Assembly: GCA_964612675.1 (NCBI GenBank)
Contig: CAZTDD010000026.1
Span: 1 to 59,258 of the forward strand
Source of the DNA: an uncultured bacterium
GTDB taxonomy: Bacteria > Hinthialibacterota > Hinthialibacteria > Hinthialibacterales > JAKPRU01
Length of the DNA: 59,258 nucleotides
Direction: 5' to 3'
The notes beneath the pieces were generated by a model that was not told where the DNA came from, did not search any database, and saw nothing but the letters and a program-made list of their open reading frames with translations. Shown here one piece after another: positions 1,273 through 20,677 of this stretch (the first letter of the stretch is position 1; every line of letters begins with the position of its first letter). The position numbers and the translations under genes were made by a program.

Positions 1273-2844
1273 TCATGATTCCGGGACAAACTCGTCCAGT
1301 CGCACCTTTGGGAGCTTCCGTAGAGTTGTATAGGTCGGGGGTTTCTCAGCCTCTATCTTGATCTCTTCGAGACCACGTCGCCGTCGTACCCCCGTATAGA
1401 ACGAATAATCTAGCAGGTACGCTTCATGCGTCTCACCGATTTTGCCGGGGTTAATACTAGGGTGAATCAAGTGGACGAGTCGTAGATCAACCAATTTCTG
1501 AAGGAGTCTGTACCCAGGGTGTCTTGGGTCCTGACGAACAAGAAAAGAGTTCCATTTGTGATCATCGAGGACCAGTCTCTTCAATTTGTCCAAAGCAAAG
1601 CGCAATGATTCACCGTCCTCGGAAGCATCTTGTTCGAGTTCAGCAGATTTTTCTTCTCCAAACTCTCCCACAGCCATGTTCACTTCTTCTATTCCAACGC
1701 GTTTTCTCCTATGCTGGATGGCAAATCCCACCGACCGTTCGAATAGCTGGAGGAAATCTCGAGGGACGCCCGCTGAACACCACACCAACCGATCAATCGC
1801 CCGGTCATGCATAATTTGGTTCGTTCTGGAGAACCCGCACTCTTTCAAAAACTGCTTCAGAACGGAAACAAGGTGCTCGCGAGCCGAAGCCGGATCGACA
1901 AGTGTTAGGTCCAAATAAATGTGCTGAACGTCGCCGGGCTGCTGCAACCCCATTCGCTGTGCGGGTTGATATAGACAAATGAAATTCTTGACGCCGGCGA
2001 TTTTCAGGCATCCCCCTGTTCCTTTCAAGATAGAGTGCAGCAACTCGAACATCTGGGGCTGCAATGCAGAGTCCAGAAGGTGCGCATCGTCCAGAAAAAC
2101 GAAGAGATTTCTGCCTGTTCTCCGGGTGAATCCTCGCACAAGCCTCTTGAGCTCCGGCACAAGTTTGCGAATCGTTGCCACGGAAAGTCTCGACGGAGAA
2201 GAGTTCATCAGGTCTGTGACTTCCCTGTGACCATGGACGAACTCAAGTGGGGCCTCAGTACCATTCCTTTCAAAAGAATCTATACACTCGCCAAAAATCT
2301 CGGCCAGGACTTCTGATATCGCGACTGCGTCGTCTCTACCCTTGTAAGGCTGCAAATCAAGCCAGATAGGGAGATCATTGTTTTGAATCACTTTGCGATA
2401 CGCCGTCAAAATCAAACTTGATTTCCCGACCCCGCGTCGACCTAAGATCGCGTGGTTGACAGGTTGAATAACCTTTTGTTCCTCTCCAGCACGAAAAGGC
2501 ACGAACTCCACCGACACTCCCCTATCGAGGGCATCGCTGGTTATCCGAAGCGTTCGTGAGATGAGAGATCGAAGTAACTGAACCTCCATTGAAGAGATGA
2601 CGTTTGGCACCTTCTCAACCTCGAGACTCAGCCTTCCTCGATACGGATGATCCATCGGCAAGCGGTCATTTATCTCAGCGAGTGCACGTTTGTAAATCGG
2701 AGCGTCGCGCCCCACTCGGAAACGGAGAAACACCTCGGGTCCGGCACGTTCCTCGTCTGTGTCCACATCTCTTATGCCCGTGCGTGCCAGGAATTCACGA
2801 CGGATGTCTTCAACTGATTCCTGCAGAGCGGAGATATTATTCAT
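1273..2844 (-). CDS. AAA+/STAND-like P-loop NTPase (Walker A GRRGVGKSS, Walker B FVFLDDAH)
   Basis: 523 aa. Walker A is near residue 135 and an hhhhDD Walker B about 70 aa later. GAGGAG RBS present. The ATG overlaps the stop of the upstream HEPN gene (ATGA). Confidence 0.7.
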   Translation of the reverse strand: MNNISALQESVEDIRREFLARTGIRDVDTDEERAGPEVFLRFRVGRDAPIYKRALAEINDRLPMDHPYRGRLSLEVEKVPNVISSMEVQLLRSLISRTLRITSDALDRGVSVEFVPFRAGEEQKVIQPVNHAILGRRGVGKSSLILTAYRKVIQNNDLPIWLDLQPYKGRDDAVAISEVLAEIFGECIDSFERNGTEAPLEFVHGHREVTDLMNSSPSRLSVATIRKLVPELKRLVRGFTRRTGRNLFVFLDDAHLLDSALQPQMFELLHSILKGTGGCLKIAGVKNFICLYQPAQRMGLQQPGDVQHIYLDLTLVDPASAREHLVSVLKQFLKECGFSRTNQIMHDRAIDRLVWCSAGVPRDFLQLFERSVGFAIQHRRKRVGIEEVNMAVGEFGEEKSAELEQDASEDGESLRFALDKLKRLVLDDHKWNSFLVRQDPRHPGYRLLQKLVDLRLVHLIHPSINPGKIGETHEAYLLDYSFYTGVRRRRGLEEIKIEAEKPPTYTTLRKLPKVRLDEFVPES

Positions 2845-3341
2845 AGTCTCACTCCTCTTTGCCTAAGATAATCACGGCAAAGGCGAAGAAACTGCCGCGT
2901 CAGCCGTAAGGCGTCATCCGGTTCATGTATGATGTTTCGCCGGACGTCATGCCAAGGCTCATAATCGGCTATGTTCCGGTCTCGCCGCAAATCCGTTGCG
3001 AAACTCGACCATTGAGACCGCTCGGGAAAATCCTTCGGCAGGTCTCCTACTTCCTGGTGGTTATCCTTGACGCAGCCTTCGCTGCAATAGCGAACACTCT
3101 TTGAACTGTTGTATATCGCGTAATAGCAACGAGACAACATAGAGCGCCACTGCCTTCGTGAGCCAGACAGATGCTCGGCTGCCCGAAGGTGCTGCTGAGC
3201 GAGGCGAAACCATCTTTTCGAGATCTCATTTGCGGGTTCCTTTAGCCAGGAGAGATCCACCTCTCCCGCGTATCGAGACAAGATGCGATGGACTTTTTGA
3301 TGGTTTTCCAGCCCGAGAAACTCCGGTCGTTTGTCCCGCAT
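2841..3341 (-). CDS. HEPN-domain protein, paralog of the HEPN at 19965-20351
   Basis: 166 aa. Shares with the other HEPN ORF the blocks L.AAE.L...YYA, D..RxxxDY[ED] and A.[QE]FL...R.YL. The 4-nt overlap couples it to the downstream ATPase. Confidence 0.6.
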   Translation of the reverse strand: MRDKRPEFLGLENHQKVHRILSRYAGEVDLSWLKEPANEISKRWFRLAQQHLRAAEHLSGSRRQWRSMLSRCYYAIYNSSKSVRYCSEGCVKDNHQEVGDLPKDFPERSQWSSFATDLRRDRNIADYEPWHDVRRNIIHEPDDALRLTRQFLRLCRDYLRQRGVRL

Positions 3342-3546: not shown

Positions 3547-4299
3547 CTACGCGGTCACGGCGGCCATTACCTCATCCGGTATATCAAAATTCGCGTAAAC
3601 ATTCTGCACGTCATCGTGCTCTTCCAGATACTCCATTAACTTGAGCATCGTTTCCGCATTCTTGCCTTCCAGCTGGATCGTATTCGCCGGGATCATGGTA
3701 ATCTCCGCCATTTCGGGAGTAATCCCCAGACCGGTTATGGCATCTTTGACCGATTCAAAGTCCGGCACTTCAGTAACAACCTCAAAAATGCCGTCTTCTT
3801 CCTTGACATCTTCCGCACCAGCCTCAATAGCTGCTTCCATCATCGCATCTTCATCCTGGACGGCGGATCGATTGAATGTGATAAGCCCTTTCCGGTTGAA
3901 GAGATAGGATACGCAGCCCGATTCCCCGAGGTTTCCACCGTATTTTGAGAAAAGGTGCCGAATCTCGGCGGTTGTCCGGTTTTTGTTGTCGGTGACCGCC
4001 TCAACAAACACGGCGACACCTCCGGGGCCGTACCCTTCGTAGCTGACCTCTTCGTAGCTGACGCCTTCAATTTCGCCGGTACCCTTTTTGATCGCGTTGT
4101 CGATATTCTTGGCGGGCATATTGGCGTTCTTCGCCGCGCCCATGGCGGTACGCAAACGCGGATTCATGTCCGGGTCGCCGCCGCCTTCACGTGCGGCAAT
4201 GGTGATCTCCTTAATGAGCTTAGTGAAGATCTTGCCACGCTGCGCATCCATCTTCGCCTTCTTATGCTTAATAGTGCTCCACTTCGAGTGCCCTGACAT
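3547..4299 (-). CDS. yebC: YebC/PmpR-family transcriptional regulator
   Basis: N-terminus [28 protein letters not shown] and full-length similarity to the DUF28/YebC family. Confidence 0.93.
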
Positions 4300-4430
4300 G
4301 GACCCGGAACCTCCTTTTACCTGTCATCGAGAACGATGAAGCACACCTGTCTCGTTCACTGATCCTAAATGTACCATAGCGCTGTCACGCGAACAAGCCG
4401 CAGACCAATTTGCTCAATAAATGCGACGTT

Positions 4431-5717
4431 CTACGCAAGAATTTGCGGCAACAAAAGCGAGATCTGAGGAAACACAACCAGAACCACAAGCGCCAAAAAC
4501 TCGGCGACTATAAACTTCACCACGGCCCAAGACACGCTTGCAACCGGCACACCGCATACCGAGGAGGCGACGAAGAGGTTTACCCCAACCGGCGGTGTGC
4601 TCTGGCCAATAGCCAGATTGACCACAACCATCACCCCAAAATGGACCGGATCGATCCCCAACGATCGAATGACCGGCAAGAAGATGGGTACAAAGATGTA
4701 GATCAACGATATCGCATCGATGAAACAGCCGGCGATCAGCAGAACCGCATTGACAAGCAGAAGAATCGCGTAGCGGTTCCCTGAAATGGATAGAGTCAGA
4801 TCCACAAGACTCTGCGTAAGGCCGGATGAATGCAAAACGAACGAAAAGAGAGACGCGCACGCCACAAGAAACAGTACCTGGGCCGAGGTTTTCGCTGCAT
4901 CATAAAAGGCACGCCCCAGCTCTCTCCATTTCATTTCCCGGTACCAGACCCATTCGAGCAGAAGGATGTACATGACAACAGCCGCCGCGGATTCCGTGGC
5001 TGTGAAGATCCCTCGGTAAATACCCCCAAGGATGATCAAAGGCGCCATCAGACCGCCCAGCGCACCAACACCGGCCTGAACCAACTCCCGAGCCGTTGTT
5101 TCTTTGCGACCCGCGCGCGCAGGGGCGCAGAACATGACGACGATGATGAGAACACCACTCACCAGAATTCCGGGAAGAATCCCCGCAAAAAACAATTTGT
5201 TGACCGATACTTCAGCCACCACACCGTACAAAATCAGCGCGATACTCGGCGGTACAATGATCCCGATGCCGCCTCCGACCGCCAGCAAGGCGGCGGCCGT
5301 CGAATTGGTGTAACCGGAAGCCACCAGAGGCGGATACAGGAGCATTCCCAAAGCGGCTACATCCGCAGGCCCGGAACCTGAGATTCCCGCGAATAGCAAC
5401 GATGCGACAACCGCAACGATTCCCATCCCTCCGCGCACGTTTCGGATCAGAAGGTCAATGAATCGGATCAGGCGGACGGAAAGTCCACTGGCACCAAGCA
5501 GACGGCCTGCAACCAGAAACAAAGGAACCGCAAGAAGAGTAAAAGAATCGTAGGCTCCGAGGATAGTGTGAGGAATAACGGTCAGTGGAGTAACCGGGTC
5601 GAAAATGACGAGGCAGAGTATGGCGGACAATGCCAAAGAAACGGCAATCGGGACCTCGCAGAAAAGCAAGGTCCCGAACGTACCGAATAGAACAATGGCT
5701 GTCAGTGTTTGAGACAC
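4431..5717 (-). CDS. dctM: TRAP transporter large permease (DctM family), orphan
   Basis: 428-aa polytopic membrane protein with DctM-like glycine-rich TM blocks. GTG start. No dctQ or dctP nearby. It sits 48 nt downstream of ilvC. Confidence 0.75.
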   Translation of the reverse strand: MSQTLTAIVLFGTFGTLLFCEVPIAVSLALSAILCLVIFDPVTPLTVIPHTILGAYDSFTLLAVPLFLVAGRLLGASGLSVRLIRFIDLLIRNVRGGMGIVAVVASLLFAGISGSGPADVAALGMLLYPPLVASGYTNSTAAALLAVGGGIGIIVPPSIALILYGVVAEVSVNKLFFAGILPGILVSGVLIIVVMFCAPARAGRKETTARELVQAGVGALGGLMAPLIILGGIYRGIFTATESAAAVVMYILLLEWVWYREMKWRELGRAFYDAAKTSAQVLFLVACASLFSFVLHSSGLTQSLVDLTLSISGNRYAILLLVNAVLLIAGCFIDAISLIYIFVPIFLPVIRSLGIDPVHFGVMVVVNLAIGQSTPPVGVNLFVASSVCGVPVASVSWAVVKFIVAEFLALVVLVVFPQISLLLPQILA

Positions 5718-9304: not shown

Positions 9305-9690
9305 GATCATTCCTCCGGCCTTCTGAATACTTGAGGATAAACCTCCGTCCCTATAAATGAAAAAGGTCGCGGACGTCTTTTCGCCCGCGACCTTTGGGAT
9401 TGACTCTTGGCTCGACCTTTATCTCCCATCGGTCGCGGACGCACGTATGGATACAACAACGACGACCGCGCCGAGAGAAAGACTATGGGGAAGAAAGGCC
9501 GATGTTTCCATGATTACTGGCGATACTCTAACGAACGGGCTGAATCGAGTCAAGTTAGGGGGCTTGTTTTTGAAATTTGTCAAGCGTGCTGGACGCCGCG
9601 TTCGTTTTGACGGACAATTGCATCGGACAGTCCGAGACCGGATTCGGCTGTCTTTGTACATAAGCTCTGCGTCACAGGAGGAACCTGAAC

Positions 9691-10992
9691 ATGTCAAGAC
9701 GCGCTATCGTTTGTAGTGGGATCGTCATAGTACTCGCCGGGATGGTCACGGCCCAGCAGCTCGAGCCGGTCGTTGTGGTCACGGATACTGCGGGACCTCA
9801 GCAGTTTCCGGATATTGCGTACGGCAGCGTAGGCAACGAATTCCTCGTTGTCTGGGAACAGGTGGACGACAGCGACAACTACGACATCTACGGTCGTATG
9901 CTGGACGGAACCACCGGAGAACCAAAGGGAGATGTATTCCCGATTCTCGTCGACGATTCGGTCGATCTCGAAGCGCCCGAAGTCGCGTACAATCCCGATT
10001 CCGACCAGTTTATTGTGATCTGCCGTGTGGCAAGCACAATCGATGTCTACGGTCAGCTCGTGGCAAACGGGAAACGCGCGGGGACGGACTTCTTCATCGC
10101 AAAGTCATCCGGACCGACCTTCTTCGATCCGGCGGCGCGTGCACGGGTCGCTTCGATCAGCTATAAGCCCACGGGACAGGAGTGGTTTGTCGGATTGACG
10201 CCCAACGAGAGTGCGGCATACATGTTCTTGGCAAGCGATGGCGAACCGGTAACCGATCTAATTCAGAATCTCGGCAGCGGAACGAATCCGGCAACTGCGT
10301 GGAGCACCGGCAGCGACGTCGGGATCGTTGCGTACGAAGACCGTCGGTCGCGAGATACTGGAGCGGAGAACCTCTCGTGCTTCCTAACGGATGAGGCCGG
10401 GAATCCGCTTCACGATGAACCGATCCTGCTGCGCGATCAGGCCAACGCGGAAGAGTCCCCTCGGGTCGCGTACAACAGCGATGACGATCAGTTCCTGGTG
10501 ATCTGGGATGAGCGGCTCAGTTGGGCGGACGACAGCGGCGGAGCCCGCACGACGGACACGTTCGGCCAGATCGTTGGCACTGACGGAACGCTGATCGGCG
10601 AGCCGATCCCCATCGAAGCATCCACACCATACACCCTGAGACAAGATGTCGATTACAGTCCGCAGGCGGGCGTGTATCTCGTTGTCTGGAAAGGCGATGA
10701 CGTAAACAGTTTCGCATTTGCGGATATCAATGGTCGCATGGTGAATCGAGATGGATCGATGCCCGCCGAGAAGTTTTTGATTTACGACAGCGGCGATGAC
10801 GACACCTCCGATCCGGATAACGAACAATATTACGACGAATCCAAGCTACCGGTAGTCGCTGCAAATTCCGCCGGTGAGTTCTTTGTCGTGTGGGAGGAAG
10901 GCGGAACGAATCGAGATCCACAGGACAGGGACATCATGGGCCGGTTTGTCAGCACGCAGAGCGGGGTCGTGGGCTGGGAACTGTTGAAGTGA
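9691..10992 (+). CDS. secreted protein with at least 4 internal repeats ([VA]AYN.D.DQF.V.WE)
   Basis: Signal peptide MSRRAIVCSGIVIVLAGMVTAQQ. Repeated blocks are PDIAYGSVGNEFLVVWEQ, PEVAYNPDSDQFIVICR, PRVAYNSDDDQFLVIWDE and PVVAANSAGEFFVVWEE. AGGAGG RBS. Confidence 0.7.
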   Translation: MSRRAIVCSGIVIVLAGMVTAQQLEPVVVVTDTAGPQQFPDIAYGSVGNEFLVVWEQVDDSDNYDIYGRMLDGTTGEPKGDVFPILVDDSVDLEAPEVAYNPDSDQFIVICRVASTIDVYGQLVANGKRAGTDFFIAKSSGPTFFDPAARARVASISYKPTGQEWFVGLTPNESAAYMFLASDGEPVTDLIQNLGSGTNPATAWSTGSDVGIVAYEDRRSRDTGAENLSCFLTDEAGNPLHDEPILLRDQANAEESPRVAYNSDDDQFLVIWDERLSWADDSGGARTTDTFGQIVGTDGTLIGEPIPIEASTPYTLRQDVDYSPQAGVYLVVWKGDDVNSFAFADINGRMVNRDGSMPAEKFLIYDSGDDDTSDPDNEQYYDESKLPVVAANSAGEFFVVWEEGGTNRDPQDRDIMGRFVSTQSGVVGWELLK

Positions 10993-11070
10993 AAAGGTTG
11001 TGAAACAGGAAGGCACAAAGGAGATACGAAGACACGAAAAGGCAAGGAAACCGACTCGAAAAAAGGCCGG

Positions 11071-11321
11071 ATGACATATACAGTCAAAATAACAAACCGG
11101 GCGAAAAGAGACCTGAAGTCAATCCCCGCAAGGGATAGAGATGTCATCGCTGAAGGAATCGACGGACTCGGAACCGATCTTCGTGGGAACGTCAAACGGT
11201 TGACCCGTTATAGCTTTGAGTATCGATTACGGATCGGTGACTATTGAGTACTATTTGACGTTGAGAACAGCGTTATCATTATTCACAGGATTGCGTTGCG
11301 TCGAGACTTATACCAAGGGCT
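11071..11321 (+). pseudogene. RelE/ParE-family toxin disrupted by an in-frame TGA (codon 59) and a lost native stop
   Basis: MTYTVKITNRAKRDLKSIPARDRDVIAEGIDGLGTDLRGNVKRLTRYSFEYRLRIGDY-stop-VLFDVENSVIIIHRIALRRDLY matches the RelE/ParE N- and C-terminal consensus. TGA at 11245-11247. The frame then runs on past the antitoxin ATG. Confidence 0.65.
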
Positions 11322-11335
11322 GATGGAGGCAGACC

Positions 11336-11629
11336 ATGAGAAAACTGGAATTGACTCCGAGGGTTTTGGAAAAAGACGGCAAGAAGATGTTTGTTGTTTT
11401 GCCTTACGAACAGTTCACTGAATTGGCGGAGCGCCTGGAGGAATTGGAAGACCTGTGCGACTTGAGAGAGGCAAAACTGGAGGCTGTCGGCGAGGATTAC
11501 CTCTCATGGGAGAGTGTGAAAGAGGAATTGGCAATTGGAACGGGTGATGCACAGAATATTAAAGTCACCAGTCAGAGTTTCTACATAGGTAAGTATGAGG
11601 TGACGCAGGCGCAATGGGAACTGGGCTGA
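11336..11629 (+). CDS. Phd/YefM-family antitoxin with a C-terminal fragment of an FGE-sulfatase domain
   Basis: KMFVVLPYEQFTELAERLEELEDL..SWESVKEEL resembles the Phd/YefM family. The last ~20 aa (KVTSQSFYIGKYEVTQAQWE) are a divergent copy of VTISKPFYIGKYEITQAQWK from the FGE gene at 46098-46934. Confidence 0.6.
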   Translation: MRKLELTPRVLEKDGKKMFVVLPYEQFTELAERLEELEDLCDLREAKLEAVGEDYLSWESVKEELAIGTGDAQNIKVTSQSFYIGKYEVTQAQWELG

Positions 11630-11658
11630 TTGACATCCTTTATCTCCCGATAGATAAT
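11630..11658 (+). promoter_or_regulatory. sigma70-like promoter TTGACA-N17-GATAAT(CCT) for the vapBC pair
   Basis: TTGACA at 11630-11635, GATAAT at 11653-11658. AAGGAGGG RBS at 11744-11751 before the ATG at 11761. Confidence 0.5.
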
Positions 11659-11760
11659 CCTAATTGTTGATTTTCAATTTAACGAGTTTTCTTCGGGGGA
11701 TTGTGTGTGCATTGCCGACGCGGTTTCATGATAGACAAAGACTAAGGAGGGAATAGGATC

Positions 11761-12195
11761 ATGCCAATTAGAGTCTTGTTGGACATACCTGAGAGCGCGT
11801 TCTCACTGTTTTCCGGAGACGCGGACGAGTTCGTTCGGGAGATGCGGATTGCAGCGGCTGTGAAATGGTTCGAGATGGGGAAACTCTCCGAGTCGAAAGC
11901 GGCGGAGCTGACTGGAATGAGTCAGGAGGAGTTTGTCCATACTCTGCGTCGGTACGGTGTGTCGCCATTCCAAAGCGATTCGGTGGGAGAAACGCGGGAA
12001 GAAAACTCCAGCCAATTTCCGCATGACTTCTGGCAATCGCCGACTATCGAGGAATTGGCCGCTGCGCAAGGAGTGGGACCTGTTCAAGATGTCGGGTCAC
12101 TCAGTGGAACCTGGCCGGGAGAACCTAACGACGGTTTCGAAGAAACCATCGGGGATCTCCGGCAGGAAGACGTGATGCGAGAAAGCCGCCCATGA
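11761..12195 (+). CDS. UPF0175-family VapB-like antitoxin with a C-terminal extension
   Basis: IRVLLDIPESAF...AVKWFEMGKLSESKAAELTGMSQEEFVHTLRRYGVSP fits the UPF0175 signature. 4-nt ATGA overlap with the downstream PIN gene. Confidence 0.7.
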   Translation: MPIRVLLDIPESAFSLFSGDADEFVREMRIAAAVKWFEMGKLSESKAAELTGMSQEEFVHTLRRYGVSPFQSDSVGETREENSSQFPHDFWQSPTIEELAAAQGVGPVQDVGSLSGTWPGEPNDGFEETIGDLRQEDVMRESRP

Positions 12196-12608
12196 GCGTC
12201 TCCAGGATTATCCTCGATACGAATGTAGTGAGTTACCTTATGCGTGGCGGACTGATTGCGGAGGCATACGGAAAACGTGTACAGGGCCGCGTCGCAGCCA
12301 TATCGTTTATCACCGTCGGTGAGCTGTATTACGGTGCGGAGAACGCGAACTGGGGTGCAGATAAGAGGCAGCAGTTGGAGGAGACTCTCCAGAATTTCGT
12401 TGTCGTTCCCTTCGATAACGAGATCGCGCGCGCCTATGGTAGGATCACCGTTCAGAGAAAGCGAGCCGGAAGGCCGATCTCTTTACATGATGCCTGGATT
12501 GCGGCCTGTGCCGTAAGGCATGATCTGCCGTTGCTAACACACAATCCTAGAGATTTTCAACACATCAGCCACCTGCAGGTAGTAACCGAAACGATCCAGG
12601 CACATTGA
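12192..12608 (+). CDS. vapC: PIN-domain ribonuclease toxin VapC
   Basis: ILDTNVV N-terminal acidic motif and PIN fold residues (D at 9, E ~43, D ~100). Confidence 0.85.
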   Translation: MSVSRIILDTNVVSYLMRGGLIAEAYGKRVQGRVAAISFITVGELYYGAENANWGADKRQQLEETLQNFVVVPFDNEIARAYGRITVQRKRAGRPISLHDAWIAACAVRHDLPLLTHNPRDFQHISHLQVVTETIQAH

Positions 12609-12816
12609 GAATTGATGGATCGAAAGCGAAGTGTACCCCGGCGATCGGCGTCCGAATACTATCTGAATCCGGATGGTCCGGATGGAAGGCTATTCGGGTC
12701 AAATTTTCTCCAGGGGCGTTGCCCTGGCTATCGTACTTCACCCCGTTGGGGTGAAACACAAGAAATCCCGCCTCTTGTGCGTTTCGCACGCGGGTAACGA
12801 TCCATTACACCGCAAC

Positions 12817-19964: not shown

Positions 19965-20351
19965 TCAATCTGTTAAAGATTCCAGGTATTTCCTGGCGGC
20001 CATCAGAAACTCACGAGCCTGTTCGAGCATGATCGTGACTGTCTCAGCATCAATGTCCATCTCAGCGTCATAGTCCCCTTTCAGCCTCCGGTCGAACGCA
20101 TCAAGCATCCAGCGATGGAACTTCGGATCGAGAATGCCCGCCTTAGCGAAATGCTCACCATAAGCCGAGTGAACACCGGAGTGTTTGCGATACGTTAGGT
20201 CATGTTGGCGCAGGAGTCCCTGCGCAACATGAAGCATAGCGTAATAAGCACGACCGGCAGCGAATTCTGTATCTCCGTTGTCGTACAGAATCTCGGCGGC
20301 AGCGAGAGCACGTTCGGCTTTCTCCAGAAACCTGCGAGACTCGTATTTCAT
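19965..20351 (-). CDS. HEPN-domain toxin of an MNT-HEPN pair
   Basis: 128 aa, all-alpha. Motif RRLKGDYD. 4-nt overlap with the upstream nucleotidyltransferase. Confidence 0.8.
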   Translation of the reverse strand: MKYESRRFLEKAERALAAAEILYDNGDTEFAAGRAYYAMLHVAQGLLRQHDLTYRKHSGVHSAYGEHFAKAGILDPKFHRWMLDAFDRRLKGDYDAEMDIDAETVTIMLEQAREFLMAARKYLESLTD

Positions 20352-20677
20352 GCTGATATCGCTTCTCCTCGTACGTTCTGGAGAAACATCGTGCCCTCAG
20401 TGTTCCATTGCTGCTCCGAAGTGAAAACCCGGCTGATACTCCTGCCAAATCTCAGTGAAAGTGACGCAATAATGGTGCTTGTCGAGTCGATCTCACGAGA
20501 GTAACTTTCCACACGGTCCAGCACAATCACGACGTCTACGTCAGATTCCCGGCCGGCTTCGTTCCGCGCGCAGGACCCAAACAGATAGACACCCTTCAGC
20601 CGGTCACCATAAACCAGGATAAGCTGCTTTTTGAGTTCATCGAGCAATTGTCGGATCTCTTCATTCATCTGTTCCAT
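20348..20677 (-). CDS. minimal nucleotidyltransferase (MNT) antitoxin
   Basis: GSCARNEAGRESDVDVVIV is the polymerase-beta-type hG[GS]x9-13Dh[DE]h motif. Confidence 0.85.
   Translation of the reverse strand: MEQMNEEIRQLLDELKKQLILVYGDRLKGVYLFGSCARNEAGRESDVDVVIVLDRVESYSREIDSTSTIIASLSLRFGRSISRVFTSEQQWNTEGTMFLQNVRGEAISA

Follow-up and report, generated by a model that had tools for sequence, protein, structure and literature searches.

Here we describe a gene pair on the minus strand of a 59,258-nucleotide contig from an uncultured Hinthialibacterota bacterium (CAZTDD010000026.1 of assembly GCA_964612675.1; hereafter the window), in which a gene for a 166-residue protein with a HEPN fold, related to PF05168 (2841-3341), is followed by a gene for a 523-residue AAA+ ATPase resembling Orc1/Cdc6 (1273-2844). 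The two genes recur together as a rare, horizontally mobile cassette that moves as a unit between distantly related bacteria. We consider it somewhat probable that they form a self-contained, mobile conflict module of a defence, abortive-infection, or toxin-regulator type, in which the ATPase would serve as a switch controlling the HEPN protein as effector. An initial annotation made from the sequence had proposed a translationally coupled pair of this kind, and both open reading frames (ORFs) are present with the ATGA overlap it described: the ATG of the ATPase gene (2842-2844) overlaps the TGA of the HEPN gene (2841-2843). A Shine-Dalgarno sequence, GAGGAG (2852-2857), lies within the 3′ end of the HEPN gene and is separated from the ATPase start by a 7-nucleotide spacer. 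The make-up of this minus-strand junction (2841-2857), together with the recurrence of the overlap in related loci, indicates that the two genes are translationally coupled.

The two genes are strictly linked across their distribution. A scan of one genome per species across 185,579 species yielded 59 loci, including 41 that encode a close ATPase homolog with upstream DNA available and 4 more that are cut at a contig edge; 13 further loci came from other routes. A homolog of the 166-residue protein, recognized with its own profile, immediately precedes the ATPase gene, in the same orientation, in 41 of the 41 genome loci and likewise in 13 of the 13 further loci, such that the pair is kept together wherever this could be checked, in about 50 loci spanning more than 10 phyla. 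The junction is also retained: 29 of the 41 loci have an NTGA overlap whose start codon is in frame, 3 more have TAATG, and gene calls in independent contigs place it at 10004/10001. Most of the remaining junctions belong to loci with a broken ATPase frame. Such breaks occur in approximately 8 of 45 loci (L029-L033, L040, L043, and L044), with a mostly intact HEPN gene; long-read assembly presumably underlies several of the metagenome-assembled genomes concerned, and the broken frames could be indel errors of sequencing or a genuine decay of the ATPase.

The two proteins also diverge in step. Pairwise identities among the HEPN proteins correlate with those among the ATPases at r = 0.93, a value reached by none of 2000 permutations in a Mantel test, which indicates that the genes travel and diverge as a unit. 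All-against-all clustering of the flanking ORFs revealed no conserved third gene, the clusters obtained being antisense shadows of the ATPase gene, and the 148 nearest neighbors of the pair are spread over 140 Pfam families, none of which has more than 4 members. The flanks differ in every locus and are mostly metabolic.

The hosts include Planctomycetia, Hydrogenedentota, Binatia, many Acidobacteriota, Armatimonadia, Verrucomicrobiae, alpha-, beta-, and gamma-proteobacteria, and Actinomycetota, as well as a single Nitrososphaera fragment. Among cultured organisms, the pair occurs in Pandoraea pneumonica, Paraburkholderia bannensis, P. aromaticivorans, Bradyrhizobium sp. dw_78, Burkholderia catarinensis, Nocardia wallacei, Frankia torreyi, and Luedemannella helvata. 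The family is nonetheless rare: a search of 1.84 billion representatives with the HEPN profile returned 377 matches (50%-identity clusters) at E ≤1e-3. The 150 best of these are nearly all standalone proteins of up to ≈270 residues, many of them fragments. A plasmid collection contained one copy only, on a Paraburkholderia plasmid, where RefSeq names the products "HEPN domain-containing protein" and "ATP-binding protein."

The 166-residue protein matches the Pfam HEPN family PF05168 at 20.4 bits (E 6e-4), below the gathering threshold of 22, and the HEPN partners in related loci give either an unmarked match to this family (L066 and L067) or a weak one (L060). Its AlphaFold model, computed with 15 homologs (predicted local distance difference test [pLDDT] score of 86.9 and predicted template modeling [pTM] score of 0.81), shows four helices at residues 31-58, 62-88, 108-125, and 141-161, preceded by an N-terminal extension of ≈30 residues with two short helices. 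The predicted bundle has the all-alpha, up-down topology characteristic of the HEPN superfamily, and on this model, we regard the fold assignment as solid.

The active-site region of the protein is unusual. At the end of helix 3, the signature RRDRNIADYE (2958-2987, minus strand) replaces the canonical Rx4-6H motif and is conserved in 33 of 33 diverse HEPN partners: within the R122-N-I-A-D126-Y127 segment, R122, D126, and Y127 are invariant, and a histidine is present in none. L47, R66, R71, Y73, Y74, Y77, L101, and P102 are likewise invariant across these partners, whose family signature can be written as SRxYYAxY, DDH, and RxxADY[DE]. Many PF05168 members carry an aspartate in place of the histidine and retain a conserved histidine elsewhere (Anantharaman 2013, including Table 1), and the signature of our protein matches this subset, as well as the description of Yao et al. 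From the alignment, H95, conserved in 32 of the 33 partners, is a candidate for such a histidine outside the motif. PF05168 proteins act as the toxin partner in class II HEPN/minimal nucleotidyltransferase (MNT) modules, with a signature lacking RX4HXY. The class is not an established RNase class. The earlier HEPN assignment stands. The canonical catalytic histidine is absent, and we treat RNA cleavage as a predicted activity.

The larger protein is an AAA+ ATPase with intact catalytic motifs, both of which had been recognized in the initial annotation. The Walker A motif GRRGVGKS (residues 135-142; 2419-2442, minus strand) has invariant G135, R136, R137, G138, G140, and K141 across 60 homologs. 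In the Walker B motif FVFLDDAH (residues 248-255; 2080-2103, minus strand), an hhhhDD-type motif with an invariant histidine after it, F250, D252, and H255 are invariant in the same homologs and D253 is conserved in at least 90% of them. A third motif, GVPRD (residues 359-363; 1756-1770, minus strand), lies in the lid, with invariant G359, V360, R362, and D363. Situated in the segment matched by the Pfam ORC-CDC6-like and NCBIfam Sll1717 models, it may be the counterpart of the Orc1/Cdc6 sensor-2 motif GDAR.

Sequence profiles place the ATPase near known families and within none of them. Pfam AAA_16 scores 32.2 bits against a threshold of 32.6, Pfam ORC-CDC6-like (PF24389) 26.7 bits against 27 over the lid only (residues 350-420), and the NCBIfam Sll1717-family ATPase model 27.5 bits against 75 over residues 349-424; a search of PDB sequences with the HEPN and ATPase profiles returned nothing significant. 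The ATPase model, computed with 60 homologs (pLDDT 92.2, pTM 0.89), has the AAA+ base, lid, and C-terminal winged helix of Orc1/Cdc6 proteins, and Foldseek ranks ORC1/Cdc6 first, with E values of 1.6e-9 to 4e-8 over 420 to 478 alignment columns; overall, its alignments to Orc1/Cdc6 span 410 to 480 columns. These results support the proposed pairing of a HEPN-type small protein with an AAA+/STAND-like ATPase and make the latter one of the Orc1/Cdc6 kind. They also revise the view of its C-terminal region, which had been described as of unknown function: in the model, this region forms the AAA+ lid and a strand/helix/strand segment that we read as a winged helix, and it is the N-terminal ≈120 residues that lack a match. 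The winged-helix-like domain and tail (residues 431-523; 1273-1554, minus strand) are the most conserved part of the protein, with a mean identity of 58%, which suggests a conserved ligand such as nucleic acid and argues against a fast-evolving sensor of phage proteins. The chain ends ≈45 residues past the winged helix, and neither the model nor Pfam reveals a repeat domain, such as the TPR, WD40, or LRR superstructure that forms the C-terminal sensor of STAND proteins.

The family-specific N-terminal domain (residues 1-120; 2485-2844, minus strand) is predicted to adopt an alpha-beta-beta-alpha-beta-alpha arrangement. It matches no Pfam family, and a profile search with it recovered only short fragments of the same ATPase family. 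A VGRxAP motif after a strand had raised the suspicion that this domain is a degenerate MNT, an identity we rejected because neither hhalign nor Pfam supports it. The main reason for proposing the domain as the site of HEPN contact is a sister clade of ATPases from Solirubrobacterales and Gaiellales (L045-L059; for example, L045 5329-7005 and L051 5317-7020) that has no HEPN partner. In several of its members, an upstream stop codon leaves at most 54 to 80 residues before Walker A, versus 132 to 140 residues in HEPN-linked loci, such that the clade appears to lack the ≈120-residue domain where an upstream stop permits this check. The N-terminal domain and the HEPN partner are thus present or absent together, which makes the domain a candidate surface on which the HEPN protein could dock. 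A partial-correlation test of HEPN identities against the N-terminal domain (partial r of 0.23, versus 0.38 for the ATPase core) was uninformative and lends no support to such a contact.

Two sister-clade loci that we inspected have neighbors of their own. The ATPase adjoins ORFs resembling IS630- and IS110-type transposases in both L045 and L051. L045 also encodes a 274-residue protein with a canonical KLRNTVAH HEPN motif (3929-4753) ≈580 bp upstream of the ATPase gene, and in L051, an MNT and HEPN-like ORF pair lies immediately downstream.

The window encodes a second HEPN protein (19965-20351, minus strand), of which the 166-residue protein had been called a clear paralog. This second protein is a bona fide PF05168 member (55 bits), and its gene overlaps by 4 nucleotides an MNT gene (20348-20677, minus strand; PF01909, E 3.5e-10); by sequence, the two constitute an ordinary class II HEPN/MNT toxin-antitoxin module (19965-20677). 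The YYA and RxxxDY[ED] blocks that it has in common with the 166-residue protein are real. The proteins are only 25% identical, however, with a BLASTP E value of 0.095 and an hhalign probability of 3%, and we rejected close paralogy on these grounds. The common blocks are instead explained as the family signature of the PF05168 branch rather than as traces of a recent duplication. No PF01909 MNT gene adjoins the HEPN gene of our pair, whose sole conserved neighbor is the ATPase gene, and the earlier suggestion that an MNT partner was swapped for an ATPase amounts to narrative.

Eleven loci have annotated contexts. Seven of these, including the window, are housekeeping or metabolic (the others are L060, L061, L063, L066, L069, and L072), and defence or toxin-antitoxin genes appear in the remaining four. 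The pair lies within a toxin-antitoxin cluster with PIN, Phd, BrnT, and NYN genes in L064; the Paraburkholderia plasmid (L068) carries a SIR2 gene with an ATPase, a PIN gene, and an Eco29kI restriction-modification system with Vsr. L070 is a defence island containing genes for PIN, an MmeI-type restriction-modification enzyme, an OLD-TOPRIM ATPase, an SMC-like protein, and a metallophosphatase, and in the planctomycete-like contig L071, a convergent gene encoding a DUF4062-NACHT-FGE-sulfatase protein (9913-12648) comes right after the pair. This association with defence islands is suggestive. In L070 alone, a DUF3037 gene (9620-10486) overlaps the ATPase stop codon by 4 nucleotides. An imuA/imuB/dnaE2 error-prone polymerase cassette adjoins the pair both in the metagenome contig L060 (12379-17551) and in the plasmid L068 (800-7068); adjacency in two unrelated loci could reflect a shared insertion hotspot or coincidence.

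If the pair is a conflict module, its features suggest how it might operate. Production from one transcript with coupled translation would provide HEPN protein and ATPase in matched stoichiometry. The ATPase would behave as a nucleotide-dependent switch, probably binding nucleic acid via its conserved winged helix, and would hold or assemble the HEPN protein, possibly through the family-specific N-terminal domain. Dimerization is generally required to build the active site of HEPN enzymes. A trigger could drive ATP-dependent oligomerization of the ATPase and thereby bring HEPN subunits together, and the assembled HEPN protein would then cleave RNA, halting either the cell or the invader. A module functioning in this way would be a compact, two-gene addition to the NTPase-plus-nuclease conflict modules, would add to the Orc1/Cdc6-clade ATPases that conflict systems have recruited, and would offer an experimental handle on PF05168-type HEPN proteins, a very common group in both archaea and bacteria that lacks the canonical Rx4-6H histidine.

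Several results weigh against this interpretation. The nearest neighbors across the 41 loci are mostly metabolic or housekeeping genes, and a PADLOC scan of all 148 gave only a handful of matches (Cas3, a type I restriction endonuclease, a PD-T4-6-like kinase, and mad2/3/6). The proposed role in defence or abortive infection draws its support from the architecture, the mobility, and a minority of defence-island contexts. The HEPN protein lacks the canonical Rx4-6H catalytic motif, no homolog of the pair was found in a phage genome collection, and no HEPN-ATPase fusion exists among the 150 best HEPN-profile matches or the 120 best ATPase homologs. (One apparent fusion, in L032, proved to be a broken locus.) The ATPase as a whole shows good conservation from phylum to phylum, in contrast to Avs-type sensors, which evolve fast. 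Finally, neither protein has a family-level match in the databases searched: PADLOC v2 has no match for the HEPN protein and only QatA for the ATPase (E 0.04, over the P-loop), NCBIfam 20.0 gives the ATPase sub-threshold matches to the P-loop or lid only (DS41_1, 19.1 bits against 370), and the best PHROGs hit has an E value of 0.013, below any family-level match. The same searches agree with the earlier remark that the pair corresponds to no named system.

A more pointed proposal, which we put forward tentatively and hold to be doubtful, is that the pair is an unnamed immune or abortive-infection system in which an Orc1/Cdc6-like ring or filament, formed on an invader-specific nucleic-acid structure, activates the histidine-less HEPN nuclease in trans. 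If so, it would sense nucleic acid where its counterparts, the Avs/NLR systems, sense protein, and the PF05168 "class II" HEPN active site would gain a functional assignment for the first time.

Alternatively, the pair might be an addiction module resembling a toxin-antitoxin system, in which the HEPN protein acts as a toxin that arrests growth, the ATPase, as a large protein antitoxin or chaperone, keeps it sequestered, and the cassette persists because its loss is penalized. A solitary cassette of two overlapping genes, found amid housekeeping genes at a different site in each genome, is what such a module would look like; PF05168 proteins are toxins in the class II modules, and the pair resides inside a toxin-antitoxin cluster in L064 and on a plasmid in L068. 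We nevertheless regard this explanation as unlikely. The toxin gene would come first, no operator-like inverted repeat precedes the HEPN gene, and antitoxins are not typically highly conserved AAA+ proteins of 523 residues whose catalytic motifs are intact; moreover, in several degraded-looking loci, the HEPN gene has not obviously been lost on its own.

A non-catalytic HEPN protein is, in our estimation, a somewhat poorer explanation still. The protein would serve as a nucleotide- or RNA-binding or dimerization adaptor, as proposed for the HEPN domain of human sacsin, within an accessory nucleic-acid-handling or regulatory ATPase complex that does no killing. The motif without its canonical histidine, the slow evolution of the sequences, and the mostly metabolic contexts are in keeping with this idea. 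The preservation across phyla of R66, R71, R122, D126, Y127, and the near-invariant H95 nonetheless resembles that of an active site, members with aspartate for histidine have been noted to keep a histidine elsewhere (Anantharaman 2013), and a physiological accessory factor would not usually be distributed in so patchy and mobile a manner.

It is very improbable that the ATPase serves an integrated mobile element as its replication initiator or as a partition-type factor, with the HEPN protein as a passenger, since its Orc1/Cdc6 architecture with a winged helix and the transposases beside the sister clade are offset by the lack of conserved integrase, replicon, or other element genes around the pair, by Orc1/Cdc6 and Hda models far below threshold, and by a strict coupling and co-divergence with the HEPN gene that would be unexpected for a passenger. 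A housekeeping identity as DnaA, Hda, or Cdc6 was rejected likewise, a match to a family such as DnaA/Cdc6 with conserved synteny having been named as an outcome that would count against a defence role: TIGR02928 (orc1/cdc6) reaches 10.6 bits where its cutoff is 181.3, the Hda model gives an E value of 0.13, the loci show no conserved synteny, and they number only 59 across 185,579 species.

The building blocks of the proposed conflict module and its general design are known, and an NTPase paired with a nuclease is unsurprising to specialists; the specific pairing of this HEPN protein with this ATPase is unnamed, and literature text searches found no description of it. Orc/Cdc6-family ATPases have been described as a mainstay of conflict systems (PMC10853773). 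Fusions of HEPN to DUF499/BrxC-like ATPases, which are related, are frequent. Class II HEPN/MNT modules, such as that at 19965-20677, come from the same HEPN branch, with R.YYA and RxxxDY[DE] and no RX4HXY, and are likewise mobile cassettes of two overlapping genes. Their partner is a minimal nucleotidyltransferase rather than a 523-residue Orc1/Cdc6-like ATPase, however, and the order of the genes is reversed relative to our pair, in which the HEPN gene is first, the HEPN protein has an N-terminal extension, and sequence similarity is marginal (E 0.095). The Hma or "BREX-related" systems also combine HEPN with an ORC/Cdc6-STAND-type AAA+ ATPase bearing a winged helix-turn-helix, in a defence setting; there, HEPN is fused to a much larger DUF499/BrxC-like ATPase and a methyltransferase and a helicase-nuclease are required, whereas our pair consists of separate genes with no other conserved neighbors.

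Other systems offer a functional analogy. RADAR RdrA/RdrB, PARIS AriA/AriB, and HEC-01 to -03 each set an NTPase scaffold or sensor beside a separate effector gene. They share no sequence family with our pair, their effectors being deaminase, TOPRIM, NERD, and PIN proteins, and the PARIS and HEC ATPases are of the ABC type rather than AAA+. Over the AAA+ base, lid, and winged helix, the best structural matches to the ATPase are the archaeal ATPases PAB2304 and SSO1545 (PF01637) and the Orc1/Cdc6 initiators. There is no significant sequence match to these proteins, which lack the extra N-terminal domain; the ATPase described here differs further in having a DD-type Walker B motif and in being coupled to a HEPN gene, and it is not a chromosomal replication factor.

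Within the window, the HEPN gene is preceded on the same strand by a YebC-family gene (3547-4299), followed farther upstream by genes for a transporter permease, ilvC, ilvN, and ilvB, and a small convergent ORF lies downstream of the ATPase gene. In the 205-bp gap before the HEPN gene, neither a sigma-70-like promoter nor an operator-like inverted repeat or palindrome was found. The guanine-plus-cytosine content of the pair (≈0.50-0.53) is slightly lower than that of its flanks (0.54-0.57), a difference that is not diagnostic. Near the edge of the window, the product of the first listed ORF (29-814) contains a peptide near-repeat, KSVSQTFC and KSVSHTFC, within 40 residues, pointing to a short direct repeat in the DNA where the window begins.

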